NCBI GenBank assembly: GCA_038040345.1
Contig: JBBPIQ010000009.1
Location: 3,165 to 67,164 of the forward strand
DNA length: 64,000 nucleotides
Origin: Chloroflexota bacterium
Lineage (GTDB): Bacteria; Chloroflexota; Limnocylindria; P2-11E
Reading direction: 5' to 3'
Positions 804 through 18,096 of this stretch are shown one piece after another. Each line of letters opens with the position of its first letter. Within the stretch, counting starts at the first letter, position 1. A program made the translations under genes and the position numbers. Below the pieces are notes generated by a model that was not told the DNA's origin, did no database searches, and saw only the letters and a list, made by a program, of their open reading frames with translations.

Positions 804-902
804 GCGCTCCAGCGCGCAAGCGCACCCGTGTAGATTCATCAGGCGGTAAAGCCTCTCGAAGCCACCGACTCGAGGAACCCACCGCCTTACTCAATCGCAA
901 AC

Positions 903-1290: not shown

Positions 1291-2046
1291 CTACGCGCGG
1301 TTGGACAGCTGATCGGATGCGGTCAGAGGAACCGCGCGCTGCACGATTCTCTTGAGGAAAGCCCGATTCAGCCAGAAACTCTTTCGGGTCACGGGCGTGA
1401 TGCCAGGAGTCGGGTCGACGTCGTCTTTGCCGCGGCCGTGCGGACGGACGTGGATGTAGCGCGTTTCGCTTTCGGCGGGAAGTTTGTTGGCCCCGCGTCG
1501 TTTGATGAGTGATCGGTACATCTCCCACTCGCCCTTCATTCCGGCCAGCTCGGCCCGGGTGGGGGTCCAGAAAAACGCTCCGGCAACCGTGTAGCGAGGA
1601 ATCGGGGCGTCCCGGCCAGCGGCGCGGAGAACGACGAGAAACATGCGCTCTGTCTCCTTGCGGAATGAGCTCGTTCTCCAGGTTTCCCGAACCAGGCGAT
1701 CACGGCGAAAAGCCCGGAAGGACATCTTTTCGAAAGGATGCAAGTCCGCAGATACGCGAACGGTCTTTACGGGAATCTGCCGAAGTTTGAACTGACGCAT
1801 CGCGGATGAAGCTCCCCCGGCGTTAAGCAACCTCCTGATGACCGCCGCACCGAAGTTCTTGGAAACCGCACCACCCTTTGGCACTCGCAACCCCTGTTCT
1901 CGGCCAATCGACCCGACCGTCCGCCCGAGATGTGGAGCGATATACCTGACGACACCCCTCTCAAAAAACTCTGCTGCCCAAGCGTCAGCACTCTTCTTTG
2001 AACTGTTCTCTCGCCTGCTATCAGTCTTGCTCATCACACTCGGCAC
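1291..2046 (-). CDS. MutH/Sau3AI-fold protein, apparently catalytically degenerate
   Basis: Aligns by eye along its length with E. coli MutH. GAAVIRRLLNAGGASS..RQFKLRQIPVKTVRV matches GWIGVLLEIWLGASAG..QDFAALGVELKTIPV. FFWTPTRAEL..EWEMYRSLI matches LLWSPNEEED..DWEELMDMI. YIHVRPHGRGKDD matches YLQIRPKAANAKA. TRKSFWLNRAFLKRIV matches LPRGFYLKKNFTSALL. MutH D70 and E77 align to Q and P, and only K79 is kept. Confidence 0.7.
   Translation of the reverse strand: MPSVMSKTDSRRENSSKKSADAWAAEFFERGVVRYIAPHLGRTVGSIGREQGLRVPKGGAVSKNFGAAVIRRLLNAGGASSAMRQFKLRQIPVKTVRVSADLHPFEKMSFRAFRRDRLVRETWRTSSFRKETERMFLVVLRAAGRDAPIPRYTVAGAFFWTPTRAELAGMKGEWEMYRSLIKRRGANKLPAESETRYIHVRPHGRGKDDVDPTPGITPVTRKSFWLNRAFLKRIVQRAVPLTASDQLSNRA
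1293..1339. repeat. Hairpin motif ACGCGCGGTT-loop-AACCGCGCG, copy 2 (longer loop), inside the 3' end of the MutH-like CDS
   Basis: acgcgcggtt (1293-1302) and aaccgcgcg (1330-1338) are the same arms as at 903-930. Confidence 0.45.
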
Positions 2047-2495
2047 GGGTGAGACGCCTTATCCGGGTCATCGCCTCTGCGCTACCTACCGAAATCAGAC
2101 AGTATCAGCTGGATTTCGGCACACACGCTGTGCTCGCGCTTCCCGCGATCAAGCTGTGTCTCGGCCGCGAGAAAAAGCTCGAGCGCCTAAGGGCACACCT
2201 AGTGGAGCGCTGGAAGTCGGTAGCAGTCGCGAGTTTGTTGGAAAACTCGCCAGCCGAGAGGATTGGGATTCTTCAGGTCATGTTCCTAGCAGTCTGCGAA
2301 TTCGCGCCTGAACGCAATCACGACGACACATGGTTATGACCAACGACAAATGGTTCACAAAGAAGGACGGCGAGCGGGCGTTTCCGTCCTCGCGGTGACG
2401 ATCAGAGGAATCCCAGCGAAGCGATAGACCGCTGATCTCCAGGCATCCGCCGTACAAAGCCCAGTCCCGGTGTGCACTGCGCTTTTCTCCGGAAC

Positions 2496-5400
2496 TCAGC
2501 ACGCGGGATGCCGCTCCGGGCTGGGGGCGGCCATCTCCTGGAAGAGACATAGAGCATTCGCCAGCCGCATCTGCTCAGGCGTCTTGCAGCGCACACGAAA
2601 GAGCGCAGGGCTAGCGACGACGATGGCCAATCCCTGCGCCCGGGAGATCGCGACATTCAGCCGATTGCGGCTGTAAAGGAAGTCCATCCCGCGGGGCGCG
2701 TCCTCGGGCGCCGAGCTGGCCATCGAATAGATCGCGACTGGTGCTTGCTGCCCCTGGAACTTGTCGACGGTCCCGACCATCGCGCCGTCCGGCAGGCGTC
2801 GCTTCAGTAGCTCGACCTGCGCGTTGTACGGGGCGACGACCAGGATGTCGCCGAGTGCAATACCGCGCGTACCCCGTTCGTCGGTCCACCGAGTGCCTAG
2901 GAGCTCGTCGATCAACGCGCGCACGCGGGTAGCCTCCTCCTCAGACTCGATCTTGTTTCCAGTGTGCTCGACAGCCTCGAACCGCAAGCCGTTCGTCCCG
3001 CTGGTGAACGTGCGGGCGCGTGCTGCGTCCACCGGTTCGAGTCGCGACTCATAGAACGCCTGGGACACGAAGTCGCAGATCTCAGGCCGCAACCGCTGCG
3101 TGCGGTCGAGGAATAGGCCAGCCTCCGTCGGAATCGTGACATGGTCACCCAGCATGTGCTCGAGCACCGATACGTCGGAGCCCGGCGGATGCGCGCCCTG
3201 CGACGGCTGCGCGAGCTGGTTCGGGTCACCGAGGAGGACGATGTTCTGAGCGCACGGGGCGACCGCGAGCGCGTTCGCGAGGGCGAACTGTCCGGCCTCG
3301 TCGATGAAGAGCACATCAATCGTGTCTTGCAGCTCCGCGCGGGCAAAGAGCCAAGCCGTCCCGCCGATTACATCCAGCCCTGACCCAAGCGCGCCATGCA
3401 CCGCCTTCGACTCGACGCGTTCGATCCGCCGGTCATGCGCCCCTTCATCTTCGTTGGCCCTCTGGGCGACGCGGACCGACGCTCCACGCGCATCCGCGCG
3501 TCGACAGATCTCGTCGAGGAAGTTGCCGATGACCGCGTGGCTCTGGGCAACCAACCCGACCTTCTTGCCGGCCGCGACGAGGTCGAGCGCGATCTCTGCG
3601 CCGGCGAACGTCTTGCCGGTCCCCGGTGGCCCTTGGATCGGCAGGCACCCGCCGTCCAGGCGAGGCACGAGCCGCCGAGCCGCTTCGATGGCGCTCTCGC
3701 CGGTCGATCGCAGCGGACCGGTGGACGAACGATCGAGCCGGGGCGGACGACGGAGCAGGATGTCGCGCGCGGCGCGCGCGTAGCCGGGTGCGTCGATCCC
3801 GTTCGCCACGACCCAGCGGGCCAGGCGCAGAAGCGACTCCTTCTGATCCTTCTCGAAGAACTCGACCGACGGCACCAGCGCGGCCGGCTGGGTCGGGGTG
3901 CGTCCGTGATTCAGCCGCAAGGTCCCGTGCCCAAGCTCGAGTATGGTGCCGGCCTTTTTCTGCGTGGCCGGATCGTGCGGGCCGTCCCCGACCTTGAGCC
4001 GATGATCCTGGTCAGCCGGGAAGCGATAGCTCTGGTGCCAGGACTGCACGACCTTTTGCGCTGGACCAACCGGCACGAGTCCGCCGATGGCTTGGCCGTC
4101 CTCGAACAGCTCGATCTCGTTCATGTCGCACCGGTCGAAGTACGCCCACCACTGCGACTTCTTCTCCCGCCGGTGATAGCCGAGGACCTGCGCCAGCAGC
4201 CAGCGCGCCTGCTGATCCGGTGTGCGGTCTTCCGCAGGGACCCCCGCGCAGAGCTCGGCGATGAGCCCAGCATTCTCATCTTCGGGCGCAAGCTCGCTGT
4301 CCTTCGGACGCGCCGGCACCGGCGGTCGCGGGACCTCGCCGAAACGCCCGATAGCCTCGGCGCGGCAGCCCTCGAGCCAGTCCCGCAGCTTCAGCGTCGA
4401 GACGCAGTCATCACGGTTGTAAGCCTCGATGTCGTCGAGGATCCGTTGGTCGTGCGTCTCCAGCCACGTTTCGTACGCGACGATGCTCCCGCCGGCATCC
4501 GCGATCGCGCCGGCCCGCGGCTCCATGTAGAGGGGCTCGAGCTTCTTGATCGAGTACGACTCCTGGGACACGGCGATGCCTTGACGAACGACGCGATACA
4601 GATCCACGAGCACGCCCTCCCGCAAGAGCGTGTCGATGGCGTCCTCGCGGGTCGCGTGGGTGCCCATGAGCCGCTTGAGAGCGGTCTCTTCGTAGGCGGC
4701 GTAGTGGTAGACGTGCAGGTCCGGGTAACGCAGCCGGAACTCGGTGACGAAGTCGATGAAGTCCTCGAACGCGCGCTTCTCGCCGGCGCGGTCGTGCCCC
4801 CAGAACGAGCGAAAGCGGATCTCGCCGCCTTCGCGCCAGGCAACACCAAAAAGGTATTCAAGGCCGTCATCGATGAGGGGGTCGCCTTCCATGTCGAAGA
4901 ACAAGTCGCCATCGGAAGGCTCGGGGAGGCGGGCGAGGCCGCGCTCCGGGCCCTCGGGCGGGAGCAGCTCGGATGTAACCCTGCCCGTCGTGCGCTGTTG
5001 GACTTGCAGCCGGGCCTGACGCTCGAGCCGGGCAAGGGTGGGATCACCGATGCCAGTAACGTGTGTCTCGGCCGACTCGGCGAGAGCCGTGAGCGTGGGA
5101 ATTCCGGCCACGCCGAGCTTGAGCACCTGTGCGCGCCCCAGGCCGGCGACGAAGATGAGATGGTCGTCGGCGCGCCACTGCGCGGTACAGCGGTCGGCCC
5201 AGCGGCAGACGTCGCAATGCTCGACTCGGTCGGGGTATGTGGTCGGTCCAGCCGCGATAGCCTCATCGAACTGTCGCTTTACGGCCCGGTAGTAGGCGGC
5301 GTAGTCCTCGAAGCGGAACGTCGCCGTCGATCGGTCGCCGAGCACCACGTGGATGTGCTCGGGGGCCCTCCCTTGAACTGCCGCGAGCTGCGACGAGTAC

Positions 5401-5876
5401 GCGCACGTCTGGAGCAGGGCAGCGGCCTTCGCGTGCCGTGCGAGCTTGGTGTCCGCGACCTCGTAGCTGAATGGGCCGAGGTCGCTGGGAATGTTGACTC
5501 GCAGGAGAAAGTCGGCGAAGCCCTGCCAGCGGCCGTCAAAGAACGCGCCTTGGTAGATGACGTCGGGCCCTGCTCGCAGGGCGGTGACGGTCCGTGCGTG
5601 GAGCTCTCTGAGACCCTCGAGGCCTGAGCTCTCTAAGGCGTCACGGTCTGCGCCGATGACGGTGATGGACCGGCCCTCGGCGCGCAGCTGATCGAGGTAG
5701 CGGGTCTCGTGCTCCATCCCCCGGCGGGCAAGGAGCGCGAGCTCGGGGTCGTCGCGCTCGGGCCGCACGAGCTCCCCCGCCATCGCTTTTCGCTCGAGCG
5801 TGAGTAAGTGATCACAACTGAGGTAGCCCGTCAGGTCGCTTGGGCTGAAGACTGGCACTCCTTCGACGATGCGCAC
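2496..5876 (-). CDS. Bifunctional RecB-like (TM0106-type, PD-(D/E)xK with Cys cluster) nuclease / RNase H-like domain / SF1 DNA2-Upf1-type helicase
   Basis: The N-terminus SPSDLTGYLSCDHL...GMEHE...YEVADTKLA plus CDVCRWADRC is typical of TM0106-family RecB-like nucleases. The FFDMEGDP block follows. C-terminal helicase motifs are IQGPPGTGKT, LFIDEAGQ, VDKFQGQQAPVAIYSM and NVAISRAQ. Confidence 0.85.
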   Translation of the reverse strand: MRIVEGVPVFSPSDLTGYLSCDHLLTLERKAMAGELVRPERDDPELALLARRGMEHETRYLDQLRAEGRSITVIGADRDALESSGLEGLRELHARTVTALRAGPDVIYQGAFFDGRWQGFADFLLRVNIPSDLGPFSYEVADTKLARHAKAAALLQTCAYSSQLAAVQGRAPEHIHVVLGDRSTATFRFEDYAAYYRAVKRQFDEAIAAGPTTYPDRVEHCDVCRWADRCTAQWRADDHLIFVAGLGRAQVLKLGVAGIPTLTALAESAETHVTGIGDPTLARLERQARLQVQQRTTGRVTSELLPPEGPERGLARLPEPSDGDLFFDMEGDPLIDDGLEYLFGVAWREGGEIRFRSFWGHDRAGEKRAFEDFIDFVTEFRLRYPDLHVYHYAAYEETALKRLMGTHATREDAIDTLLREGVLVDLYRVVRQGIAVSQESYSIKKLEPLYMEPRAGAIADAGGSIVAYETWLETHDQRILDDIEAYNRDDCVSTLKLRDWLEGCRAEAIGRFGEVPRPPVPARPKDSELAPEDENAGLIAELCAGVPAEDRTPDQQARWLLAQVLGYHRREKKSQWWAYFDRCDMNEIELFEDGQAIGGLVPVGPAQKVVQSWHQSYRFPADQDHRLKVGDGPHDPATQKKAGTILELGHGTLRLNHGRTPTQPAALVPSVEFFEKDQKESLLRLARWVVANGIDAPGYARAARDILLRRPPRLDRSSTGPLRSTGESAIEAARRLVPRLDGGCLPIQGPPGTGKTFAGAEIALDLVAAGKKVGLVAQSHAVIGNFLDEICRRADARGASVRVAQRANEDEGAHDRRIERVESKAVHGALGSGLDVIGGTAWLFARAELQDTIDVLFIDEAGQFALANALAVAPCAQNIVLLGDPNQLAQPSQGAHPPGSDVSVLEHMLGDHVTIPTEAGLFLDRTQRLRPEICDFVSQAFYESRLEPVDAARARTFTSGTNGLRFEAVEHTGNKIESEEEATRVRALIDELLGTRWTDERGTRGIALGDILVVAPYNAQVELLKRRLPDGAMVGTVDKFQGQQAPVAIYSMASSAPEDAPRGMDFLYSRNRLNVAISRAQGLAIVVASPALFRVRCKTPEQMRLANALCLFQEMAAPSPERHPAC

Positions 5877-6055: not shown

Positions 6056-6688
6056 GTGCTATCCGAACCTCGTGAAGACGCTATACGGGATCTGTGGCAT
6101 GTAAGGAGGCCCTTCGGGACGCTCGGGTCGTTCAGGGCCACTCGCCGTCCGGGTTCTTGGACGGAAGGCCCGGAAGGACATCTTCTCGAAGGGTCTGAGG
6201 TCAGGCGCGACCCGGACCGTCTTGACCGGTATCCGCCGAAGATCGAATTGGTAGATGTCAGACCGTGCGCCTCCAGCGTTAAGAAGCCTTCGGACTACCA
6301 CGGCCGCATAGTTCTTTGGAACCTTGCCATGGCTAGGGAATCGAGCTCCTTCCGGGCCGACGTCCTCCGGCTGTTCATGGTTGTTCTCCGAGCCGGCAGC
6401 GAAACGATGCCGATGCCGCAGTACACACTTTCGCGCGCTTTCTTCTGGTCGCCAACCGATGGGCAGCTGCTCGACATCGGGCGCGAATGGAAGATGTACC
6501 AGGCTCACATCCGCCGTCGAGGAGCCGTAGCCCTACCTCGCGAGAGCGAGACTAATTACATACATATTCGACCGCACGGACGAGACAGCAAGGATTTGGA
6601 TCCGACGGCGAAAATCTTGCCGACTACCCGCAAGAGCTTCTGGCTGAATCGGGAGTTTCTGGCGATTATCGTCCGCCGACGTAGATAG
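6056..6688 (+). pseudogene. Second MutH/Sau3AI-fold paralog whose central 56 codons are inverted relative to the flanks; the ORF stays open in both orientations
   Basis: The plus-strand C-terminal half (from ~6338: RESSSFRADVLRLFMVVLRAGS...YIHIRPHGRDSKD...TRKSFWLNREFLAIIV) matches the 1291-2046 product. The matching N-terminal block (GKVPKNYAAVVVRRLLNAGGARSDIYQFDLRRIPVKTVRVAPDLRPFEKMSFRA) is encoded on the minus strand at ~6160-6333. The first ~30 plus-strand codons (..PFGTLGSF..) weakly match HLGRTVGSIG of the paralog. Confidence 0.7.
6167..6358. repeat. 12-bp perfect inverted repeats (GGCCCGGAAGGA at 6167-6178, TCCTTCCGGGCC at 6347-6358) bracketing a 168-bp invertible-looking segment
   Basis: Read directly from the sequence. 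The spacer 6179-6346 is exactly 56 codons, and both arms sit on codon boundaries of the 6056 frame (GPEG and SFRA). An 8-bp palindrome GCCATGGC at 6326-6333 lies near the homology junction. Confidence 0.8.
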
Positions 6689-6895: not shown

Positions 6896-7759
6896 ATGGC
6901 GTCGCCTAAGGGAGTCGACGGAACCCGGCTCCTTTATCCCTACCTCCAGAAGGACTTGCTATCGAGCGATGTGTGGCTGTTCCAGATGCTTACCGCCCGT
7001 CTTGTCGTGGATCTGGGAATTTGGTTGCCTCCGATCGTCTATCAACGGCTGCCAGTCCTTCTTCCCTACGCTGTCCGGGATCCTGACTGCCGCGGCGATC
7101 CGAAGAACGGAATACCCGATCAGTGGGGGTCACCCAACAGCGCCGGCTTCTTTCGTGACGACAACAGTCTGGTGAAGGTCATGCCGCGGAGCCTGTCAAT
7201 CGAAAGCGAGAGGAGCGTCTACCGCTCTGCCCGGATGGACAAAGGCTTCGTTGCCGCTCACGTCTGGAGACGCCTTACTGGCGGCGCTTCGGCCGCCCGC
7301 GATAGGCTCACATACTCCTTCGTCCCGAACCTCGTGTGGTTGCCGAGCGACGTCGCGAGACTTACCGACCGAGAGGGCTCCTTCGTGCAGGCCTTCGTAC
7401 AAGCACTTGCGGTCAAGACCTACCGCGGGTTGCCCGTCGTGCCTTCGATGAAGCGATTCGTAGATCAGATTTGGGAAATGCTCCCGCAACCCCTAGGCAT
7501 CCCCCAGCAGGCTCTACCGGGGGTCGAGGATTTGAATTTCTTCTCAGTGACCCCAGCGTGGCTCGCTCGACGGCTCCAGAAGATCGTCGGTGTCCATGAA
7601 GCGTTCAAAGACCTACGGGCCGGGGCGCTCCATCGACCAAAAGTCATCTCCAGCCGATACACCACCGGATTGATCTCGATGAAGCCCGAGAGCGCACGGG
7701 TGCTGTACGAGGAACTCGACCTATACCGAAACTGTTGCGAGGACGCGGCCCGGGGATAA
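6896..7759 (+). CDS. Hypothetical protein, possible HNH_2-like nuclease fold
   Basis: GFVAAHVWR followed ~20 aa later by NLVWLPSDVARLTDREG loosely resembles the HNH_2 pattern (AAHI.P ... N.l.L...lH.lFD.g), but the second His is absent. Nothing else is recognised. GC is lower than the surroundings. Confidence 0.3.
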   Translation: MASPKGVDGTRLLYPYLQKDLLSSDVWLFQMLTARLVVDLGIWLPPIVYQRLPVLLPYAVRDPDCRGDPKNGIPDQWGSPNSAGFFRDDNSLVKVMPRSLSIESERSVYRSARMDKGFVAAHVWRRLTGGASAARDRLTYSFVPNLVWLPSDVARLTDREGSFVQAFVQALAVKTYRGLPVVPSMKRFVDQIWEMLPQPLGIPQQALPGVEDLNFFSVTPAWLARRLQKIVGVHEAFKDLRAGALHRPKVISSRYTTGLISMKPESARVLYEELDLYRNCCEDAARG

Positions 7760-7807: not shown

Positions 7808-8239
7808 CTATCCCGCTGCAGGACGGAGGTCGTTCACCAGAGATGCGAGGGCGAGAATCGTCGCGTCGCGGTCGTGTCGCTCGTACTCCAATACGAAGTC
7901 GATGCCTCCATTGGCGTACTCCTCGAGGATCCGAAGCATCTCATTTTGATTCGCGACCACCGCTGGCTCACCAGTCTCGGCGATGGAAATGGCTTGGACG
8001 AGCGGAACATCCTCCTGGGCACTGAACGAATGCCAGAACCCGACGTGTTGTCTGGGCCCCTTGGTTGCCAGCCGCCGCTTCTTCGCCCAGCCGACCGCGG
8101 CCGCGAAAAGAAAGGCGTCCTTCAACGTTGGAAACGGGGAGGTTTCGTCATCCTTGCCGAGGGCCTGAAAGAGATGATGTTTGTCTCTTTGGACGTAGAT
8201 GCGGCCGCCGCCCTGCTCACGCGGAGACTCGTCCGTCAT
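7808..8239 (-). CDS. Small protein resembling the 'DNA phosphorothioation (Dnd)-associated protein 4' family, last gene of the operon
   Basis: The start overlaps the upstream stop as ATGA. PFPTLKDAFLFAAAVGW..KRR and LRILEEYANGGIDFV resemble, from memory, the family that accompanies DndD-like ATPases. Confidence 0.4.
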   Translation of the reverse strand: MTDESPREQGGGRIYVQRDKHHLFQALGKDDETSPFPTLKDAFLFAAAVGWAKKRRLATKGPRQHVGFWHSFSAQEDVPLVQAISIAETGEPAVVANQNEMLRILEEYANGGIDFVLEYERHDRDATILALASLVNDLRPAAG

Positions 8240-10152
8240 TGAACAACCTCCACCGAGGTCTGGCTCGTATTGTCATTGAACCTCAATACGTATTCCCGGC
8301 CGATGTGCGGCTCGAGGAGCTTACGCGCGTCATCGTCGATTTCCCGGTCCGTCACCAACAACACGAGCTGCTTGGCGATCTTCGGGAGGGCCTCAACGAT
8401 GTTGTCAACAACCTCCTCCGACAACCGACCGAAAGGCGTGTCGATGACAAGCGGCGCCTCCTCGCCCGTCACTCTTGTGATTCCGGCGATGAATGAAAGG
8501 CTCAACACCTGGCGCTCACCTGCTGAAAGACTCACCAGCGAACCGGGGCCAAAACGATCTTCGACCTCGAGGCGGTAGTCCGGGGTGACCGTCACGCCGA
8601 CGAACGTCTTTTGTTTCAATGTCAGCTCACGGAAGATCTGGTCGGTACTCTGCTCGATACGTCCGCGCATATCCGTGCTGAACGCTTCCAAAACTCCCCG
8701 GGCCGCATCCCCTGTCTTGACAGCAAGCTCATACGCACGCTTGAGCTTTTGAGCCTCGCCCGTGCGGGCTTCGTGTGATTCGAGCTTGCTCAGGATATCT
8801 AGCAACTTACGTTTCGACTCCTCAATTTCCAGCTCGACTCGGCGAGTCTCGACACGAGTGTCAATCAGTCGGTTGTCGAACAGCTGGCGAGTACGCTCGA
8901 GTCCAGCGACGTCTTCGGAGAAGTCGCTGAGGAGCTTGAGGTGAAGCTCTTCTTCTCGGCGCTGGGTGTCAGCGATCTGCTCGCGGAGCGTTTCTCGCCT
9001 GGTAACAGCCTCGCTCAGCTCCCGACCGACTATCGCGGCCCGCACCTCAAGCCCGCGTACCTCTGTCGCAGCGGCGAGGACGGCATCGGCAACATCGCTC
9101 GGAACGACCGATTTGTGGCGGTTCTCTAAAGCAGACCGCGCGGCGTCGTCCAGGTGACGCCCGCAAATGCACAATCCCTCGCGGAGCAAGTCTTCGATCA
9201 ACTGCTGGCGCATTCCTGCGGGAATCTCGCCGCGCGCTCGCTTCTCTTCAAGAATCTCCTTCGCTCTCTTGACCGCACCCTGAGCTACGAGAGGACCCGC
9301 ACCTGAAACAGCTCGCCGGAGCACGACCGCCGCCTGCTCGTATTCTGCTTCGAACATCGAGAGGCTCTGGTGTACCAGCTTCTCCTCTGCCTGGACCGTA
9401 CGGAGTTCGGCCATCTGATCGAGCTTGGATCTGGTGGCCGATAGTTCATGCTCGAGCTGACTCGCTGCGTCACGGAGATCCTTGAGCCTTTCCTGGGCGG
9501 TGGTCATCTCGGTATTGACCGCCTCCCGCTCGGCAATGAGCGTTTCCTGCTCCTGGGTAAGGTGCCCGGTCTCCCTGAGCGCTTTCGCGGATTCACGCGA
9601 AACTTCGTCCAGGTGCAAGGCTGCGCGCTCGAGGACCTTCAACTTGAGCACGCTCCTAACAGCCTCTCGGACGTCGGCTTCATGCCCTACCCGCGATAGC
9701 TCATCGATCCTCTCGCCATCAAAGAAGAAATACCTGCGCGCATCCGCGGGAAGAATCACGTTCACACTCCGCGATGGGTCTGGAATCCGTACGACCCTGC
9801 CGCCAGTCTCGAGGCGGTCGAGCGTGAACTCCTCCTCCCGCTCGGTCCCTGACGGAGTCCGGACTTGAATCCGTCGCGCCACGTAGCGAGTGCCCTCGTG
9901 CTGGAAATGGAGTTCTACGCTCGCTTTTGCCAGCCGCTCCTCGCCAGCTACCGCTTTGTTTACTAGCTCGCCCTTTACAGCAGCGGCATCCCCATATAGC
10001 ACCCAGTTGAGTGCACCAAAGATTCCGGTCTTGCCCGCACCGTTCAGGCCTGTGATGACAGTGACGTTCTTATCGGTACCGAAAGCAAAAGTAAGCTCGT
10101 TATCGCCTCGGTACTGGCGGAAGTCCCTCAACTTCAGCCGTTGAAGAATCAC
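8236..10152 (-). CDS. DndD-like SMC/Rad50-type ATPase
   Basis: Walker A ITGLNGAGKTGIFGALNWVLYG. A long coiled-coil middle with a central CICGR hook-like motif. Signature LSAGERQ and Walker B PLVIDTPFGRLS. GTG start overlaps the stop of the 58-aa ORF (GTGA). Confidence 0.75.
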   Translation of the reverse strand: MILQRLKLRDFRQYRGDNELTFAFGTDKNVTVITGLNGAGKTGIFGALNWVLYGDAAAVKGELVNKAVAGEERLAKASVELHFQHEGTRYVARRIQVRTPSGTEREEEFTLDRLETGGRVVRIPDPSRSVNVILPADARRYFFFDGERIDELSRVGHEADVREAVRSVLKLKVLERAALHLDEVSRESAKALRETGHLTQEQETLIAEREAVNTEMTTAQERLKDLRDAASQLEHELSATRSKLDQMAELRTVQAEEKLVHQSLSMFEAEYEQAAVVLRRAVSGAGPLVAQGAVKRAKEILEEKRARGEIPAGMRQQLIEDLLREGLCICGRHLDDAARSALENRHKSVVPSDVADAVLAAATEVRGLEVRAAIVGRELSEAVTRRETLREQIADTQRREEELHLKLLSDFSEDVAGLERTRQLFDNRLIDTRVETRRVELEIEESKRKLLDILSKLESHEARTGEAQKLKRAYELAVKTGDAARGVLEAFSTDMRGRIEQSTDQIFRELTLKQKTFVGVTVTPDYRLEVEDRFGPGSLVSLSAGERQVLSLSFIAGITRVTGEEAPLVIDTPFGRLSEEVVDNIVEALPKIAKQLVLLVTDREIDDDARKLLEPHIGREYVLRFNDNTSQTSVEVVQ

Positions 10153-10325
10153 ACACGCTGTCCGCGACGGACTTGGGCGTCGATGATCTCCCGAATCTTC
10201 TCCTTGACACGTGGCCGGTCCATGTCAATGACCGCCTGTTCGGCCAATATCACGTCGGCGAGAATCTCGCGCACGTCGGGCTCCAGCTTTTTGAGGTAAC
10301 CAGACAGAAGATCTTGCACGCCCAT
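10149..10325 (-). CDS. Unlisted 58-aa ORF (below the 60-aa track cutoff), helical, function unknown
   Basis: My own translation is MGVQDLLSGYLKKLEPDVREILADVILAEQAVIDMDRPRVKEKIREIIDAQVRRGQRV. The ATG lies 2 nt after the helicase TGA (tgaacATG), and its TGA overlaps the ATPase GTG. It fills the only gap in the operon. Confidence 0.55.
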   Translation of the reverse strand: MGVQDLLSGYLKKLEPDVREILADVILAEQAVIDMDRPRVKEKIREIIDAQVRRGQRV

Positions 10326-10327
10326 GT

Positions 10328-12367
10328 TCAGATGTACTCCCCCACCAGGTGAATAAGGTTATACGCGTCAAGTATCGGCCAAATGACCGCCCTGGCGGCG
10401 TCGGGATTCATCGAGGATGCGGCGAAGTCAAGCACCCGGCGCAATTCCTTCTCGACGAGCTGCCGTTCGTATTCCCCGCGCAACTTCGGCACGACGACAT
10501 AGTCAACTATCCGGGCCCGGTTCTTTCCAGGGGCGAGCCGAAGCACTCTTCCGCGCCGCTGGATGAATTCCCTCGGATTGCCGCTGCTCGCCAAAATGTA
10601 CGCTTCGCGGGTCTCGGGGATGTCGACACCTTCATCAAGCGCCTTCATCGCAACAAGTGCAGGTATTCGCGCCGCGGCGAACCCCGAGAGCAGTTCTTGC
10701 CTCGTTGCGCTGGGTTCCTCCGCCGTGAAAGCCCGAGGGAGATAACCTGCCGCACGCAGAGTTTCGGAGACAGCATCGAGCTGTCGGCGGGACGCGCAAT
10801 AGAACAGCGTCCGGCTTGGAGGATCGAGAGCGATTGCCTCGCGGACCTTTTCTAACTTCCCCATTGCGCCGTTAAGGACGCGGACTCGCTCTTCTTCTAG
10901 GTGTCCCAGCCGAACTATGTCCCTTTCGCGAACGGCATGTTCGATTTCCTCGACCGTGTGGTCGTAGGTCTCGAGTTCGGACTTGTCGAGATCTACCAGC
11001 ACGGGTTCGTATCGGTACGGTGAGAGGCATCTAGCTGCGATTGCCGCCCGTACTCCGAATTCGTAGACAACTGGACCGAAGTACCTGAATAGTCGCGCCG
11101 TACCGGCCTCGTCCTCCCACCTAGCGGGGGTCGCGGACAGACCGAGACGGTAGGAGAATTTCTCATCCATAAGCGACTCGTGGTGCTCTGCGCCGAGGTG
11201 ATGAACCTCGTCTGCAATCAACAATGCCCGGCGCCCGTCGATTCGCCTGAGTACGCTCTGGAACTCCGACACGCCTGCGGTGCTGATCGTCGAAACGAGG
11301 CAAATGCTCCGGCTCCCGCCTGCAGCCTGCGTGTCGACGGCGTCCCACGCTTCGCGGCGCCAATCGCTTGTTCCGTAACAACGAACCGGACGCAAACCCC
11401 ACGCTGACGCACGGTCGACCCATTGATCAACGAGATGAATGAACGGGGTCACGACGACGAGCGCAAGTTCTCTTTTGACCTGGTCGCGGAGCCGGACAGC
11501 GCAGGCCAAGGACGTCTCTGTCTTGCCGGTGCCTGTGGCCATCGAAAGGATCCCGCGGCCACCGGCCGCCATCCAAGCGTTTACGGCGTCGTCCTGATAG
11601 GGGCGAAGTGTGAATTCGGCAGGCTGGTTAAAGCGACGCGTTAGGCGAACGGCTTCGCGGGCTACAACGGGTACCGATCGACGTGAGGAATTCGCGATCG
11701 AAACGAGCTCGGCGCGCACCGCTTGGGGGAGGGATATGACATCAAGGAGTGGGGTCTCATTGCGCCAAAGCGCTTCGAAGTTCCTGGTCTTTTGTTCGAC
11801 GCGGTCGGAGGAGTCATCCCAGGAGAAGAACACATCGATCGATTCAAAATTGCTCACGAGCCCGCCCACGGTCTCATTCGCGGACCCTGAGAATGCGACG
11901 GCGGAATCGACGTCGTCTCGGAATATTCCGACCTTCTCGTGGAATATCCCTGACCCCTTTCTGGGCACAGCAATTCTGATTTCCAGCCGATCGGCGGCCA
12001 CGAGCCAAGCCAAACGCAAGGCGCTGTCCTTCTTTCCTGCGCTCTCCCAGAGCGCCTCGAGAAGTCGCATCTCGACGATGTCGCTCTTGGCGGCCTCTCC
12101 CCGCTCGATCGCCGTCAAGTCGTCTTCTCTTAGCTGCGGACTCGCAACGAGACGCATCCGACCTTCGTGACGTTCGAAGACGTCAAGACCCTGGGCCGCC
12201 AAGGTCAACCCATCACCGGTGAAGTAGCCGACGGCGCGGTCATAACGGGTTGCTCGGGCCAGACAGGGAACATAGAAGTCGTCGACGATGTCGGACGAAC
12301 CCGAGCGGTACTCCTTCTTGAGCGACAAATCTCGCAAAGCTGAGGCGCCGGCCATCTGACTAGTCAA
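10328..12367 (-). CDS. Phospholipase-D-like (single HKD) nuclease domain fused to an SF2 DEAD/DEAH (ResIII-type) helicase
   Basis: HKD motif HEKVGIFRDDVDSAVAFSGSANET. Helicase motif I MATGTGKT, motif II ADEVHH, motif VI QRRGRVLR. The listed start at 12367 is TTG. An ATG at 12355 lies 4 nt after the upstream TAG and is the likelier start. Confidence 0.8.
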   Translation of the reverse strand: MTSQMAGASALRDLSLKKEYRSGSSDIVDDFYVPCLARATRYDRAVGYFTGDGLTLAAQGLDVFERHEGRMRLVASPQLREDDLTAIERGEAAKSDIVEMRLLEALWESAGKKDSALRLAWLVAADRLEIRIAVPRKGSGIFHEKVGIFRDDVDSAVAFSGSANETVGGLVSNFESIDVFFSWDDSSDRVEQKTRNFEALWRNETPLLDVISLPQAVRAELVSIANSSRRSVPVVAREAVRLTRRFNQPAEFTLRPYQDDAVNAWMAAGGRGILSMATGTGKTETSLACAVRLRDQVKRELALVVVTPFIHLVDQWVDRASAWGLRPVRCYGTSDWRREAWDAVDTQAAGGSRSICLVSTISTAGVSEFQSVLRRIDGRRALLIADEVHHLGAEHHESLMDEKFSYRLGLSATPARWEDEAGTARLFRYFGPVVYEFGVRAAIAARCLSPYRYEPVLVDLDKSELETYDHTVEEIEHAVRERDIVRLGHLEEERVRVLNGAMGKLEKVREAIALDPPSRTLFYCASRRQLDAVSETLRAAGYLPRAFTAEEPSATRQELLSGFAAARIPALVAMKALDEGVDIPETREAYILASSGNPREFIQRRGRVLRLAPGKNRARIVDYVVVPKLRGEYERQLVEKELRRVLDFAASSMNPDAARAVIWPILDAYNLIHLVGEYI

Positions 12368-12911
12368 AATTCTCCGGCTCGATTCCGATCAGCATCATCG
12401 GCCCCGGCACCATCCGCGGGAGACTGGAGACGAGCCGGACCATCTCGGCAGCAACCTGCTCAAAGCTCACCACGTTAGAGTCGATCGCGTTCGCGAACTT
12501 CTGGGTTGGAAGAACAAAGACAGCAAGCCGAACGATTCCCGTCGCGTATCCAAAAGCAACGCGAGTGACAAGGTTATAGGCGTAATACGACCGATTCCCG
12601 AATTCGAATATTGCGTGGACGCCCGTGCGCAACGTATCGGCGGTGACGCGCCTTATACGTATGTCATTTGTGGCTGACTCGGCTGCGAACAAGACGTCCC
12701 TCTTCCATTCCCGCTTCTGCAATTCCGCCCTCAGACTTCGAATCAAACCGGTCTGGTCGAAAACGTATTGCGGCTTTGCCTTGTGGCGCACCTGGCGTGG
12801 AGCTTGTGTGTTGCGGAGGACCTCGACAAGTTCCGAATACGTGCCGAAGATTTCGTTGTCCAAACGGAGCAAGTCAACGGCTCCAGCTAGCGGAGCATCC
12901 CTAATGATCAT
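12360..12911 (-). CDS. BglII/BamHI/BstYI-fold type II restriction endonuclease-like protein
   Basis: ADTLRTGVHAIFEFGNRSYYAYNLV...LAVFVLPTQKFANAIDSNVVSFEQV...PMMLIGIEP matches the remembered BglII-family layout (D..(8-9)..E.x..FGn, then ..vlI.P...l....g..sfe......vigi). The residue two after the putative catalytic E is F rather than Q or K. Confidence 0.55.
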   Translation of the reverse strand: MIIRDAPLAGAVDLLRLDNEIFGTYSELVEVLRNTQAPRQVRHKAKPQYVFDQTGLIRSLRAELQKREWKRDVLFAAESATNDIRIRRVTADTLRTGVHAIFEFGNRSYYAYNLVTRVAFGYATGIVRLAVFVLPTQKFANAIDSNVVSFEQVAAEMVRLVSSLPRMVPGPMMLIGIEPENFD

Positions 12912-12936
12912 TGCGATCAGAACGAATCCGCGTTGC

Positions 12937-13467
12937 TCAGAATCGCTCCATGGGTCGAATGCGAAAGTCTCCTCGACGTCGAGCGATCACTCGGCCGACC
13001 GTCCGTGCAACGCGTGGCGCATCGGTCAATTCGTGATCCCAAATCTCAACGACGACCCACCCTAACGTCCGCAGCTGCGAGCGCACACGAGCGTCGCGAA
13101 GCCGATTGCGGCGAAACTTCGACGACCAAAACTCACGATGGGATTTAGGAAGAGGCAGACGACACGTGGGACATCTGTGCCAAAAGCAGCCATGGACGAA
13201 GATGGCTACGCGCTCGGCACGAAAAGTCAGATCGGCACGGCCCGCGGGGGTGACGGCGTTTCGTCGATAGCCGGTCACATGCGCCTGGCGAAGGGCTCGT
13301 CCCAATCTGATCTCCGGGCCTGTGTGCGCGGGGCGGTTCGCTCGCATGACCGCGCGCGCAGCCAGCGACGATGGCGGCGGATTCCGGGGGTCTGTCGGGA
13401 TTAGCGGTCTAGGCACCTGTGAGAGTGAGCTGCTCGACCCCCGCTCTACGCGTACGCTCTCGATCAT
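12937..13467 (-). CDS. vsr: Very short patch repair (Vsr) T:G mismatch endonuclease
   Basis: MRANRPAHTGPEIRLGRALR...GRADLTF...VAIFVHGCFWHRCPTC...FWSSKFRRNRLRDARV...LGWVVVEIWDHEL are canonical Vsr motifs. The start is uncertain: the ORF opens at 13521, with Met codons at 13479, 13467 and 13347. Any early start overlaps the dcm 3' end, as in E. coli dcm-vsr. Confidence 0.85.
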   Translation of the reverse strand: MIESVRVERGSSSSLSQVPRPLIPTDPRNPPPSSLAARAVMRANRPAHTGPEIRLGRALRQAHVTGYRRNAVTPAGRADLTFRAERVAIFVHGCFWHRCPTCRLPLPKSHREFWSSKFRRNRLRDARVRSQLRTLGWVVVEIWDHELTDAPRVARTVGRVIARRRGDFRIRPMERF

Positions 13468-15292
13468 CCTTCGGCCCATACCTCTTAAGAGCGGCTTCGA
13501 AGAGTCGCGAGGGGTCGGCACCAGAATTCGAGCGGAGTTTTCGGACAGGTCGAGCTCGTAGGTTCGGTTGCCAAATCGCGGGAAGGTTCACCGCGCCCCA
13601 TGTGGTGCCGCTGTTCGCCAACGAGCATACGTAAGCAACTCCTACAAGAAGCGCCGCTGTGCTTGGGGCAGTCCACTTTGCCGAACGCGCGGAGTCTATG
13701 TAGACGACTGTTTGGGTGCTCGTGTATCGGCGACCAACGATTTCGGCGACGGCGTCAAGGATTCTGTAAGGAGTCGAACCGACTGCGACCTTTCCGGACC
13801 ACGCCGCTTGAAGCGTCGATGCATCCGGGACGATTGGGGGGAGGGTCTCTTGGAAATCAGCGATGAGTCGGCGGGCACGATCGAGTGACCGCGCGTCCGA
13901 GATCGTCAAAGCGAGTCTCTCGAGGGCGCCGCGCAAAGAGACCGACTCTGCCCGGACACGCTTTCCGGAGCCCCTGTAGAGGAGGGCCCGCCACTCGACC
14001 AGATGGGCCGGGTGCCGCCGTCCTTCCATCCAGAGAAGATTCGGTGAAGCCAACTTGCCCTGATTGTCGAAATCGATCCGGGAACTGCCGTGCTTTGATC
14101 CTCTGACGTGATCGCGGAACTTTCGAAGGAGCGAGTGAGACCTTCGGCGCTGACCTGTGAGTTCGATGTCCGGTGACGGCAGGATTCCCGTTGTTATGAC
14201 GTGCGGCTGCTCAGGTGAGGCTTCGCCAGCGAGAGCAAGGATTTCCTTGGCGATTGCGAAGGGCACCAGGGGCGGAACCGCGTTGCCAACCAGTTTGTAG
14301 CGCAGGCTCTCCGTCTTCGCCCACCATTGATACGTGATGGGGAATGACTGGACCGATGACGCTTCTCGCACCGTGAGCCGGCGATAGCCATCTTCGGTCG
14401 CGACGATGATGGCCTCGCGATTCGGCCGAAGCTGTGTCGCGACGACCGTCCGAGCCGGCCTATCAAGGGCATCTGGGAAGAGCATCTTTCCGTACCAAGA
14501 ATGCCCGGTCTTCGTTCGCCGGATTTCATCGACTTCGTCGTCAGTGAGACGCAGGGCAGTCGAGAAGTGGTCAGTAAGTTCGTGAGCGGGCACGCCAAAA
14601 TCGTAAATCGGATCCGTAATCACTTCGCCAAGCTGCGGCCGGCGCTCCGGAGCTGGAAGACCACCAATCACATCGCCGAGACTGCGCGATTCGGGCAACA
14701 GTCCCGGTCTCTGCGCATGCGTCGCTTCGGGTAGTGGAAAGTCACCCGAGAAGAGTCGCGCACGTCTCTGCGGAACGCCGTAGTCGGATGCGAGAAGTAT
14801 TTGTCTTCGTGGGATGCTCAGGGTGCCCTTTCCGCGGACTCCGAGCTTAGAAAGCGGCACTTCCTCAGGAAGAAACTCCAGAGTCCGCGGGACATTTTCC
14901 ATGATCCACCACTTTGGCTTCAGTTCATAAACGAATCGAAGAAACCGGTATACGAGTCGGAGCCCTGCCTCGATATCGCCACTCCCGCCCCGCTTCGCAA
15001 ACGAAAACTCAGTGCAGGGAGGACTTCCGATCAGGACGTCGACGTGACCGACCCGTTCGGGAGCATATGACAAGAGGTCCGCCTGTTCGACGGTCGTATC
15101 TGGATGGTTTACCCGGTGCGTTTCGACGGCCGCACGCCAGAAATCAACCGCGTGAACGACGCGAAATCCGGCTTGCCGGAAGCCTTCCGAGAATCCCCCT
15201 GCCCCGCAAAACAAATCCGCGCACGTGAGGCTCATCGGTACGACAGTACCGAACGAGGCCGACTCGCCGGTTCGTCGTCGTCGAACGAGCAC
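13409..15292 (-). CDS. dcm: DNA (cytosine-5)-methyltransferase with a ~250-aa C-terminal extension of unknown function
   Basis: Motif I DLFCGAGGFSEGF, motif IV GSPPCTEFS, ENV, QRRARLF and GNAVPP. A likelier start is the ATG at 15235 (MSLTCADLFCGAGG). No motif is recognised after ~aa 380. Confidence 0.9.
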   Translation of the reverse strand: MLVRRRRTGESASFGTVVPMSLTCADLFCGAGGFSEGFRQAGFRVVHAVDFWRAAVETHRVNHPDTTVEQADLLSYAPERVGHVDVLIGSPPCTEFSFAKRGGSGDIEAGLRLVYRFLRFVYELKPKWWIMENVPRTLEFLPEEVPLSKLGVRGKGTLSIPRRQILLASDYGVPQRRARLFSGDFPLPEATHAQRPGLLPESRSLGDVIGGLPAPERRPQLGEVITDPIYDFGVPAHELTDHFSTALRLTDDEVDEIRRTKTGHSWYGKMLFPDALDRPARTVVATQLRPNREAIIVATEDGYRRLTVREASSVQSFPITYQWWAKTESLRYKLVGNAVPPLVPFAIAKEILALAGEASPEQPHVITTGILPSPDIELTGQRRRSHSLLRKFRDHVRGSKHGSSRIDFDNQGKLASPNLLWMEGRRHPAHLVEWRALLYRGSGKRVRAESVSLRGALERLALTISDARSLDRARRLIADFQETLPPIVPDASTLQAAWSGKVAVGSTPYRILDAVAEIVGRRYTSTQTVVYIDSARSAKWTAPSTAALLVGVAYVCSLANSGTTWGAVNLPAIWQPNLRARPVRKLRSNSGADPSRLFEAALKRYGPKDDRERTRRAGVEQLTLTGA

Positions 15293-15931: not shown

Positions 15932-17131
15932 TCACCGGCACTGGGTCAGTCGGGCAGGGTTGACGATTCGGAGGTACTCCTCATAGCGGTGCCGCGCGTC
16001 GGCGAGCAGATCGGCGAACGTGCGGATCACGACCGCGGTCCGGTACTTCACGGTGCGCCGCACGTCCTCATTCATCGCCTGTCCGACGAGCGCGGCAGTC
16101 CAGCTGATGCCGCGGGTGTGCTCCTCTGCCAGCACGAGGTAGCGCTCGGCCTGATTCAGGTCCGCGAGCGTGAGGCGATGCGCAGGCCGCTTGATCTCGA
16201 TGATGACGCCCTGGAGGCCGAGCTGGACACACGCGAAGTCCGGTCGCCGCGCCGCCTCGGCGCGGCGCTCCTTCTGGATCGCCCGGCCGATGAGCGTCCG
16301 GAGGGTGCGGTTGCTGCTCATGAGCCAGTACCGCTCGTCCACCAGCCACATCGCGCTCTCGAGCACGCGGTGGATCGAGCGGTCCCCTTTGAGCTCGTAC
16401 GTCTTGTCGTCGAGGACGAGTTTCTCGAAGAGGTCGATCGTCTCGAGGCGCTGGCGGATCTGGCCCACGAGCTGGATGATCTGATGGAGCGACCAGGACT
16501 CAAGAAGGCCCTCCAGCTTCGCAAGCGCCTCGCCGCCCTCGGCCGGGAGGCGCTCGATGAGTGCCCGGTAGGCCGCGAGAAAAGGCCGGCCGAGCTTGGC
16601 CTCCTGACGACTGATCCGTTCCACAAGCGCGACCGCCTCCGGCGACCAGGCTTCTACGGCTCCTTCGGCGGGATCCGAAGCTAAAACTTCGCGCGCGAGT
16701 TCCGGGTTTTGACGGACGAGCTCGCGCAGCTCGTTCTTTCCAAGCGCCGCTGCCGGGAGCGCGCTGCGGGTCGCGAGGGTTTTCCACCCAAGACTCGGGC
16801 CGAAGTCGCGCTCGACGATCTCGCGCACGCGGGTCCATTGCTCGGGCGTGGAGATGTGCAAGCTCGGGCTTCGTCCGGCGCTGCCCGGCCACCATTTCGA
16901 AAGCGTGATCCGCGGGTGGGGCTCGCCGAAGCGCTCATTCGACTTCGTGATCTGGACCTCGAACTGCTTTGTAACCTCGCGGCGCGCGAGCACCCAGGGC
17001 GGAGCGAGGCGCGCGCTGCCGCACGTCGCGCAGATCTTGGCATCGGGCTTGTTCGGGGCGCCGCACTTCTTGCAGATCCGCGCGCCCTGAACCGGAGCTG
17101 CGGCAGGGTCTTCGGTCTTCCGCACCGGCAT
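15932..17131 (-). CDS. Shedu-like (SduA / DUF4263) PD-(D/E)xK defence nuclease with an N-terminal zinc ribbon
   Basis: CKKCGAPNKPDAKICATCGS zinc ribbon. C-terminal HRVLESAMWLVDERYW...PDFACVQLGLQGVIIEIKRP...QAERY fits the DUF4263 D..E.K core. The listed ORF start at 17509 is an Arg-rich extension, and the ATG at 17131 (MPVRKTEDP) is preferred. Confidence 0.6.
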   Translation of the reverse strand: MPVRKTEDPAAAPVQGARICKKCGAPNKPDAKICATCGSARLAPPWVLARREVTKQFEVQITKSNERFGEPHPRITLSKWWPGSAGRSPSLHISTPEQWTRVREIVERDFGPSLGWKTLATRSALPAAALGKNELRELVRQNPELAREVLASDPAEGAVEAWSPEAVALVERISRQEAKLGRPFLAAYRALIERLPAEGGEALAKLEGLLESWSLHQIIQLVGQIRQRLETIDLFEKLVLDDKTYELKGDRSIHRVLESAMWLVDERYWLMSSNRTLRTLIGRAIQKERRAEAARRPDFACVQLGLQGVIIEIKRPAHRLTLADLNQAERYLVLAEEHTRGISWTAALVGQAMNEDVRRTVKYRTAVVIRTFADLLADARHRYEEYLRIVNPARLTQCR

Positions 17132-17220
17132 TGGCGCTCGCTTTAAATCTCGCGCCGAAGAACGAGTGGAGGCAGAGGCCGTGGCCCGGCGGCGCTTTGA
17201 TCCCGGGCTCTTCCCTCGTT

Positions 17221-18096
17221 TCACGCGCCGCTGCTCTCTCGACGCTCGACTGGGACGTCCACCACGGTCACGGGGACGTCGATGAGCGGGAAACGCCCGG
17301 TTCGACCGGCGACCTGCCAGATCTCGCCGAAAGGTCCGACGCTCCCACGAAGCGCATCGAGAGATGTAAACCGGAACGCCCTGCTTATCCGTGAGGCCTC
17401 CGTTCGGCCGCTGAAGATGGCTTCGGTCGCTCCGCGGAGCGCGCTCGAGCGCCGCTCGGTCCGCGTCACCGTGAGGATGAGCGGCCAGACCGGAAGGCGC
17501 ACGCGCCACGAACCGCCGCGATAGAGGTCCAGATACCGCTCGATCTTGCGTCCGAAAAAGCGGCTTCTCTCGCTTCCGCGATCGGCCTCGATGAACGCAT
17601 GGATGCGGCGCTGTGCGGTCTCATAGATAAAGCGTGCGTCCGGAGCGACCGGCTGGCGTCCAAGGCTCTCGGCCACCTGCCAATCGCACTCCCAGATGAG
17701 CGCGTCACCGTCGCGATGAGCGCGAGCCTGGCGGAGGAAGGCGAGCGCGATCTCCGCGACCATGAGGGCGTGCGCCAAGAGAAAGGTCCCTTCGACGCGC
17801 GGACGCCGCAGCGGGAGGCCAGGCTCGAGCGCTCCGAAGACCCTCCGGCCTGAAGCTGTGAGGAAGTACGCGATACGGGTGGGCATGCCGTCGGGATCGC
17901 CCGCGAGTAGCGCGTTGGTCGTGATGAGCTGGCGTTGTCGTAGGCGCCGGAGGATTCGCCAGGTGCCGACCTCGCGGGAGTGAGCGCTAAGCGGGGACTC
18001 GCCGAGGACGAACTCCTCGATCTGGGCGCGGCTCAGAAAACGATACATCCCGAGGTACCGGAGCGCGTCCATCTCGCGGGAAGATCCTTCGATCAT
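17221..18096 (-). CDS. Replication-relaxation (Replic_Relax) family protein
   Basis: MDALRYLGMYRFLSRAQIEEFV...RILRRLRQRQLI...PDARFIY......AFIEADRGSE fits the family pattern. Candidate starts are ATG 18096 or ATG 18072, and the listed 18201 start adds a low-complexity extension. Confidence 0.65.
   Translation of the reverse strand: MIEGSSREMDALRYLGMYRFLSRAQIEEFVLGESPLSAHSREVGTWRILRRLRQRQLITTNALLAGDPDGMPTRIAYFLTASGRRVFGALEPGLPLRRPRVEGTFLLAHALMVAEIALAFLRQARAHRDGDALIWECDWQVAESLGRQPVAPDARFIYETAQRRIHAFIEADRGSERSRFFGRKIERYLDLYRGGSWRVRLPVWPLILTVTRTERRSSALRGATEAIFSGRTEASRISRAFRFTSLDALRGSVGPFGEIWQVAGRTGRFPLIDVPVTVVDVPVERRESSGA

Follow-up and report, generated by a model that had tools for sequence, protein, structure and literature searches.

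The stretch of DNA analysed here, 64,000 nucleotides (nt) of contig JBBPIQ010000009.1 from a Chloroflexota bacterium (assembly GCA_038040345.1; hereafter the window, whose numbering is used throughout), carries a cassette of eight genes and ~8.4 kb in which a C5-cytosine restriction-modification (R-M) module lies directly upstream of a predicted PbeABCD module. Seven of the genes are on the minus strand: dcm (13409..15292), encoding a C5-cytosine DNA methyltransferase (MTase); vsr (12937..13521), encoding a very-short-patch T:G mismatch endonuclease; a gene for a 183-amino-acid (aa) PD-(D/E)XK protein of the BglII/BstYI/BamHI family (12360..12911); pbeA (10328..12367), which joins an HKD (phospholipase D (PLD)-family) nuclease domain to a superfamily 2 (SF2; ResIII/DEAD) helicase; pbeB (10149..10325), for a small protein of 58 aa; pbeC (8236..10152), for a coiled-coil ABC ATPase of the CxC (zinc-hook) clade; and pbeD (7808..8239), for a 143-aa 'DNA phosphorothioation-associated protein 4' (dnd_assoc_4). 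Gene 8 (6896..7759, plus strand, 287 aa) encodes a conserved protein without family match and converges on pbeD, 48 nt separating the two stop codons. The longest vsr open reading frame (ORF) overlaps the end of dcm by 113 nt, and less if it starts at ATG 13479 or GTG 13416, one of which is probably the true start. The nuclease gene follows vsr after 25 nt, and its stop either overlaps pbeA by 8 nt (TTG 12367) or precedes it by 4 nt (ATG 12355); 2 nt separate pbeA from pbeB, and pbeB-pbeC and pbeC-pbeD each overlap by 4 nt, through GTGA and ATGA respectively. A first-pass annotation made from the letters alone had placed the seven minus-strand ORFs correctly, together with their packing (overlaps or gaps of 25 nt or less), and profile matches confirmed its domain calls in essence (Dcm, Vsr, BglII/BamHI-family nuclease, PLD plus SF2 helicase, DndD-like ATPase); its count was one gene short, as it had missed gene 8.

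The methylase appears intact. Dcm matched PF00145 (E 3.5e-42) over profile positions 2-323 of 324, which makes the MTase domain complete, and PADLOC MTase_II at 3.3e-53; the FxGxG, PPC, ENV and QRR motifs are all intact. Its start is more likely ATG 15235, because homologues align from there, and counted from this ATG the MTase domain covers aa 1-~335. The remaining ~270 aa (13412-14233, minus strand) form a C-terminal domain that is conserved in the cassette homologues and has no Pfam match. Its AlphaFold2 model is confident (predicted local distance difference test, pLDDT, 89; predicted template modelling score 0.86), and fold searches with it returned no match in the PDB (best E 0.59) or BFVD (best E 0.14). 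A word-index search with this domain alone found nothing; a full HMMER scan gave 48 cluster representatives (50% identity), in which it is almost always found at the C-terminal end of a Dcm protein of 560-640 aa, whether or not Pbe is present, so the domain is neither Pbe-specific nor a stand-alone family. Vsr is recognised by three libraries (PF03852, 4.5e-14; TIGR00632, 3.5e-27; PADLOC Vsr, 3e-15), displays the FVHGCFWH motif in its translation and is kept in all cassette loci described below.

The third gene encodes a protein related to BstYI. A profile built from its own sequence and four homologues matched BstYI (1sdo) with E 2.2e-7 and BamHI with 0.92; the single sequence reached 7e-4 against PF09195, below the cut-off, and all homologues carry a precomputed PF09195 annotation. 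These homologues form only five clusters among 5.8 billion proteins, the window's own protein included, and wherever the contig is long enough, the homologue lies inside this same cassette. The candidate active site reads D92 ... I101-F-E103, where relatives have D ... E-x-Q/E. In register with BstYI, D92 corresponds to D119, I101 to E128 and E103 to Q130, and the same Ile-for-Glu register is obtained against a relative from a stand-alone R-M locus (L094, 33% identical), which reads VEVEFGN where the cassette clade has AIFEFGN. Ile thus occupies the place of the canonical metal-binding Glu in all five cassette members, in a protein that is otherwise highly conserved (72% mean column identity) and in which an invariant E78 precedes D92. 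PD-(D/E)XK enzymes can relocate their catalytic Glu, as in Cfr10I (PD-XXK-E) and EcoO109I (EPD-XXK; PMC3424549), and an AlphaFold2 model built on the five-sequence alignment was too poor (pLDDT 41) for the active site to be inspected. Judged from these alignments, the protein may have lost nuclease activity, and it could be either the type II nuclease partner of Dcm or a reader of its site.

PbeABCD was defined experimentally in haloarchaea in 2019 as a four-gene module that, together with dndCDEA-dependent phosphorothioation, blocks the virus SNJ1 (Xiong et al., Nat Commun; PMC6459918); phosphorothioate (PT)-modified SNJ1 escapes it, and DNA degradation was not detected (PMC6459918). Aravind's group has since re-annotated the module as a CxC ABC-ATPase/DndE-anchored system (Rakesh/Aravind NAR 2024, PMC10853773), in which PbeA combines an HKD nuclease with an SF2 helicase, PbeB is small and evolves fast, PbeC is the CxC ATPase and PbeD is a clade-2 DndE (double ribbon-helix-helix) that serves as the DNA-binding partner of PbeC. 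On the strength of profile matches and motifs, the four distal genes of the cassette are PbeA-B-C-D in canonical order and hence such a system. PbeA matched PADLOC PbeA at 1.8e-216 (residues 11-659 on profile positions 2-669 of 672) and TIGR04095 dnd_restrict_1 ('DNA phosphorothioation system restriction enzyme') at 1.3e-127, with Pfam matches to ResIII, Helicase_C and PLDc_2. Its nuclease motifs HEK...D (HxK, at 143) and GSAN (GSxN, at 161) and its helicase motifs I, II and VI (GTGKT, DEVH, QRRGR) are intact, with ATG 12355 or TTG 12367 as start. PbeC matched PADLOC PbeC at 2.5e-125 and TIGR03185 DndD at 2e-65 (221.5 bits, under the 245.85-bit cut-off), and carries Walker A at 35, LSAGE at 542 and C328-I-C330 in the middle of the coiled coil. 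A central CxC was found in 65 of the 66 full-length PbeC proteins of the surveyed loci and in none of 25 DndD, which reproduces the published diagnostic of the CxC clade. PbeD scored 64 bits (1.6e-17) against TIGR04062, just under the 74.25-bit cut-off; its orthologues in two of the other cassettes (L001 and L004) carry a precomputed PF27807 dnd_assoc_4 annotation, and the motif FAAA...IFEEYANGG is conserved across 31 sequences. PbeB had no match in Pfam, PADLOC or NCBIfam. It is 49-53% identical to 60-aa ORFs at the equivalent position of L001 and L004, and a hidden Markov model (HMM) of the cassette PbeBs matched small ORFs in PT-linked Pbe loci (L010, 4e-9; L024, 5e-5). Small ORFs occupy 55 of the 67 surveyed pbeA-pbeC gaps; their median length is 57 aa, and they have a motif in common, ...E..LH...PR(V)..I.

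Gene 8 is a member of the cassette in its own right. Its product is 62-66% identical (tblastn) to those of genes that L001, L004 and L005 carry at the equivalent place and with the same orientation, and a jackhmmer search of all ORFs of the 96 loci surveyed recovered it from Dcm-type cassettes alone, with no copy in Pbe loci that are solitary or PT-linked, nor in R-M loci where Dcm stands without Pbe. No match was obtained in Pfam, PADLOC, NCBIfam or PDB sequences. By eye only, the stretch GFVAAHVWRR...PNLVWLPSDVARLTDREG (AAHVW...NLVWLP..VARLTDRE) looks HNH_2-like; neither hhalign against an HNH_2 protein nor the motif segment searched in Pfam supported this, so that the resemblance is no more than a lead.

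We found the order Dcm, Vsr, nuclease, PbeA, 60-aa ORF, PbeC, PbeD again in four other independent metagenomic lineages, at 49-69% amino-acid identity; two of these loci (L001 and L004/L005) are complete and two (L002 and L003) are cut by contig ends. Because the gene order recurs across lineages, chance can be excluded as the source of the arrangement. The pairwise identities of every gene, gene 8 included, recover two common subclades, {window, L002, L003} and {L001, L004}; since the subclades are congruent in the R-M genes, the Pbe genes and gene 8, the block has been inherited whole to ~50% identity. The junction between the modules is stable too, the nuclease stop and the pbeA start overlapping or lying no more than 13 nt apart in all five lineages. 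These observations support the view that all genes form one conserved, co-inherited unit. The flanks differ: L001 and L004 have a carboxyltransferase gene beside the cassette, and the window has a conjugative element. This carboxyltransferase gene (methylmalonyl-CoA decarboxylase alpha-like; 11916-13499 in L001, 9433-10911 in L004, 8195-9778 in L007) adjoins the cassette in the first two loci and a stand-alone Dcm plus MutH-like R-M system in the third, which suggests a chromosomal hotspot beside it where R-M cargo is swapped. An AIPR gene is nearby in both L001 and the window.

Outside the cassette, the two modules keep different company. The Dcm family is broad, with proteins of 560-640 aa in bacteria and archaea, and the surroundings of its relatives at 45-55% identity are those of ordinary R-M systems, with no Pbe: one adjoins a MutH/Sau3AI-like nuclease in each of L007 and L008, one lies between two BglII-family genes, together with an HNH_2 gene, in L094/L095, and one stands alone in a TIR/SLATT island (L009). 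For PbeA we collected 80 metagenomic relatives at 33-45% identity. For 41 of their loci the flanks reach 8 kb or more: dndB/C/D/E genes are present in 26 of these and an Ssp-like set (a PAPS reductase of ~575 aa, a DUF4007 protein, a ~1200-aa protein and a class-V aminotransferase-type cysteine desulfurase) in 11, and 4 initially fell in neither group; at least two more Ssp-like sets emerged among the PbeA-relative loci that have no dnd genes. The Ssp-linked modules (L041, L057, L058, L060, L064, L070, L071, L075, L082-L084, L087 and L088, several of them from human-gut metagenomes, and also L092, a Rhizobium plasmid) suggest that Pbe also pairs with SspABCD-type phosphorothioation. None of the surveyed PbeA-relative loci has an adjacent Dcm. 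Scanning reference-genome contigs with PbeA returned a single locus (L006), a canonical dndBCDE-pbeA. Pbe loci on plasmids are PT-linked in Arthrobacter and Rhizobium and solitary in Lactiplantibacillus (L. plantarum) and Bacillus (B. thuringiensis). On the 45.8-kb conjugative L. plantarum plasmid NZ_CP040377.1 (L091), the solitary PbeABCD is present in two identical tandem copies (415-5222 and 7980-12787). HMMs of DndB/C/E and of the Ssp-like proteins found no match anywhere in the 64-kb window, where Dcm is the only modification enzyme found. Because Dcm relatives occur without Pbe, PbeA relatives are mostly PT-linked and the window has neither Dnd nor Ssp genes, the cassette is a rare fusion in which a conventional 5-methylcytosine (m5C) R-M module is joined to a Pbe module most closely related to ones that use PT.

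We consider it probable, taking the two statements jointly, that the cassette is a horizontally mobile unit built of two known modules in one operon and that m5C takes over from PT as the self-mark of Pbe. The Dcm of the cassette would methylate C5 of cytosine at a specific site in host DNA, and Vsr would repair the T:G mismatches left by m5C deamination, thereby limiting the mutational cost. The BglII/BstYI-family protein may recognise the same site when it is unmethylated. PbeC, as a zinc-hook ATPase, and PbeD, as its DndE-like DNA-binding partner, would load on and scan DNA, PbeA would translocate on it and attack it through its helicase and HKD domains, and PbeB could be a small regulatory or adaptor subunit. 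PbeABCD would thus read the m5C of Dcm where its relatives use PT, and unmethylated incoming phage or plasmid DNA would be restricted by the site-specific nuclease, by the ATP-driven Pbe machine, or by both. We infer the reading of m5C by Pbe, the co-operation of the modules, the target sequence and any role of gene 8 alike. BglII, BstYI, BamHI and the Sau3AI/MutH partners all cut sites with a GATC core, hence our guess that the target of the cassette contains GATC.

The alternative that deserves most attention is that a complete type II R-M system (Dcm, Vsr and the BglII-family protein) and a 'solitary' PbeABCD merely travel together, their packing reflecting the compactness of mobile islands without any link to m5C; we regard this as possible, though not as the expected outcome. 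It would explain why the long Dcm relatives have MutH/Sau3AI-like or BglII-family nucleases as partners in loci that lack Pbe, and why PbeABCD is found alone on the L. plantarum and B. thuringiensis plasmids. The survey of Xiong et al. can be read for either side: 320 of 553 PbeAC pairs are without dndCD, and in 155 of these an MTase lies no more than 10 kb away, a pairing with methylation being proposed there, whereas 165 have no modification gene nearby (PMC6459918). Simple co-travel is harder to reconcile with a fusion that persists to ~50% identity with congruent subclades in all genes and no swapping of modules, with a nuclease-pbeA junction that stays overlapping or within 13 nt in all five lineages, and with a nuclease clade not seen outside the cassette among 5.8 billion proteins. 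In addition, the published activity of PbeABCD needed a host DNA mark (PMC6459918), and no mark other than that of Dcm was found encoded in the window. We therefore keep methylation as the self-mark, the idea already put forward by the first-pass annotation, as the best current reading and one that is somewhat better than evenly supported. Several points weigh against it. Co-inheritance could result from co-mobility rather than co-function, and both the Dcm relatives in ordinary R-M contexts and the solitary plasmid-borne PbeABCD modules show each half of the cassette without the other. I101 deprives the nuclease of the canonical metal-binding Glu and leaves its activity uncertain. The profile comparison of PbeD with DndE by hhalign gave a probability of 3.9% (E 0.011), and PbeD had no match in the PDB, so that their kinship rests on PMC10853773. 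Simple scans recognised neither promoter nor terminator in the cassette region. GATC-core palindromes are not avoided in the 64-kb window (observed/expected 0.88-1.02), and for this reason a GATC-containing target stays a guess. Lastly, the searched literature holds no experimental test of a methylase-linked Pbe and no link of m5C to Pbe activity.

The unusual active site invites another explanation, in which the BglII/BstYI-family protein has been domesticated as a non-catalytic site reader that licenses PbeA, making the whole cassette a single ATP-dependent, m5C-gated machine with a type II-derived specificity subunit. The domesticated protein would read unmethylated sites and pass these on to PbeA and the PbeC/PbeD scanner, with gene 8 as a further effector or regulator. 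We consider this unlikely on balance. The Ile that all five members carry where BstYI has E128 and the L094 relative a Glu, the strong conservation of the rest of the protein (72% mean column identity) and its occurrence only upstream of, and fused to, pbeA are what such a reader would lead one to expect; yet the catalytic Glu is known to relocate in Cfr10I and EcoO109I (PMC3424549) and the invariant E78 could substitute, the AlphaFold2 model (pLDDT 41) is too poor for the site to be inspected, and Vsr with a complete Dcm fits an ordinary R-M system equally well. Far less probable still is a categorically new seven-gene system sharing only its logic with BREX, DISARM, Dnd or Hma, which is how the first-pass annotation had presented the locus when it stated that it knew of no canonical set with this gene content. 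The whole eight-gene set, with Vsr, the BglII-family protein and gene 8, was indeed not found described in the readable parts of the literature, but PbeA and PbeC are full-length, high-scoring members of their families, the other two genes stand where PbeB and PbeD belong, predictions of methylase-linked versions are already in print, and PglZ, BrxC, DrmA/B and Hma proteins are not among the top matches. Four of the seven genes thus belong to an already described system, PbeA-B-C-D in canonical order, and their linkage to a methylase has largely been described too (PMC6459918, PMC10853773). The question of recurrence raised by the same annotation had a positive answer, the gene order being found again in L001, L002, L003 and L004/L005.

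The surroundings support the placement of the cassette in a defence island on a conjugative element, as had been noticed from the sequence. One flank holds Replic_Relax, a TrwB/DUF87 T4 coupling protein and a VirB4/TraC-like ATPase; the other holds a Sau3AI-like nuclease, a TM0106 RecB-like nuclease with SF1 helicase and an AIPR fragment. The G+C content of the cassette is 0.595, against 0.696 for the neighbouring conjugation genes of the element backbone and 0.663 for the rest of the window. Rfam, tRNA and RNA-fold scans of the region gave nothing of note. The Sau3AI-family/MutH-like nuclease (1291-2046, minus strand, 251 aa; NF040973, 1.1e-22) adjoins a second Vsr-like fragment (834-1217, plus strand; HMM E 2.4e-8), and no second methylase lies within the 64-kb window; the pair may be what is left of an R-M system, or the nuclease may be of the GATC type and have the cassette Dcm as its protection. 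Just upstream of gene 8 and on the same strand, a 210-aa ORF (6056-6688, plus strand), which is not kept in the other cassettes, has a C-terminal ~110 aa weakly like the MutH/Sau3AI-like nucleases of L007 and L008 (tblastn 1e-15; NCBIfam 3e-3). The 1126-aa protein encoded at 2496-5876 (minus strand) combines a TM0106 RecB-like nuclease/RNase_H_2 domain with an SF1 helicase (AAA_11/AAA_12) and matches MkoA and MkoC in PADLOC; its 83% identity to an L007 protein makes it probable that the host of the window and the source of L007 are closely related. A 525-aa protein encoded between the cassette and Replic_Relax (15932-17509, minus strand) contains a zinc ribbon, and its C-terminal region weakly resembles BbrUII/HgiDII-family restriction enzymes (6.2e-7). 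Over the whole window, the most depleted 6-bp palindromes with appreciable expectation are AAGCTT (1 vs 7.2 expected) and AGTACT (1 vs 5.2 expected), 64 kb giving this count low power.

The cassette bears on two issues in the Pbe field. The mechanism of PbeABCD is contested, as the founding study saw protection without detectable DNA degradation and computational work since then holds cutting by the HKD nuclease to be necessary; and the use by Pbe of a mark other than PT is an explicit open question in both PMC6459918 and PMC10853773. The cassette offers a compact, self-contained test case: it has only one methylase, does without sulfur chemistry, and includes a nuclease-like protein whose active site is unusual, along with one conserved partner without known family. 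Should m5C gate Pbe, the CxC-ABC/DndE scanning core would be a general reader of DNA marks and not a PT-specific device; should it not, the locus would be a stacked defence island, to be annotated 'type II R-M plus PbeABCD'. If the BglII-family protein were truly a site reader, the cassette would represent a new class of ATP-dependent, m5C-gated restriction and give a first mechanistic handle on how Pbe reads its mark.

Among known systems, BREX, DISARM, Hma and MADS were rejected, as no PglZ, BrxC, DrmA/B, HmaA-C or Mad protein was the best or near-best PADLOC match of any of the seven proteins, in agreement with the first-pass annotation as regards PglZ/BrxC and DrmA/DrmB; the only matches to such systems were generic (DrmMII and DruM to Dcm, and BrxHI to the helicase core at 3.5e-6). 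The possibility that PbeA is a type IV (methyl-directed) enzyme was rejected as well, because the cassette encodes its own methylase. Closer are the Dnd (DndABCDE-DndFGH) and Ssp (SspABCD-SspE/FGH) systems, which mark self and attack unmarked DNA: PbeC belongs to the sister clade of DndD and PbeD is the reported cognate of DndE, but the cassette is without DndA/B/C, SspA-D, DndFGH and SspE, and its PbeC carries a CxC hook that DndD has not. The earlier statement that Dnd genes are missing therefore holds for the sulfur-transfer genes, which are absent from the window, and not for the Dnd kinship of PbeC and of PbeD, the latter as treated in the literature. The haloarchaeal DndCDEA-PbeABCD system has Pbe genes of the same order and sizes (PbeA ~680, PbeB ~60, PbeC ~640 and PbeD ~145 aa), whereas the cassette lacks dndCDEA or other PT genes in the 64-kb window, places Pbe downstream of Dcm, Vsr and a BglII-family nuclease with the convergent gene 8, and resides on a conjugative element in a bacterium of ~66% GC. 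On the R-M side, stand-alone systems with a long (560-640 aa) Dcm (L094/L095, L007, L008) share the Dcm family, C-terminal domain included, a nearby Vsr and a partner nuclease of the BglII family (L094) or of the MutH/Sau3AI family (L007, L008); they differ in having no Pbe, and the L094 partner keeps E-x-E where the cassette has I-x-E.

Conflict systems anchored by a CxC ABC-ATPase and DndE and equipped with cytosine methylases were reportedly described by Krishnan et al. in 2020. In some CxC systems, cytosine-5 or N4 methylases and an 'MTaX1' gene stand in place of the PT genes (PMC10853773, Fig. 4A-iv). The candidates for MTaX1 in our cassette are gene 8 and the Dcm C-terminal domain, neither of which matches any library, Pfam, NCBIfam and PADLOC having no MTaX1 model; Vsr and a BglII-family nuclease are not mentioned in the searchable part of that text and supplement. 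What the searchable texts were not found to describe is, accordingly, the pairing of Vsr with a BglII-family protein of altered active site, the cassette-specific gene 8 and the strict co-inheritance of the whole. Methylase-linked PbeABCD itself was predicted computationally before and is not a new class. With its CxC ATPase, DndE cognate, HKD plus SF2 helicase, small protein and cytosine-5 methylase, and no PT genes, this methylase-linked CxC system is the best-fitting published description of the cassette (PMC10853773).

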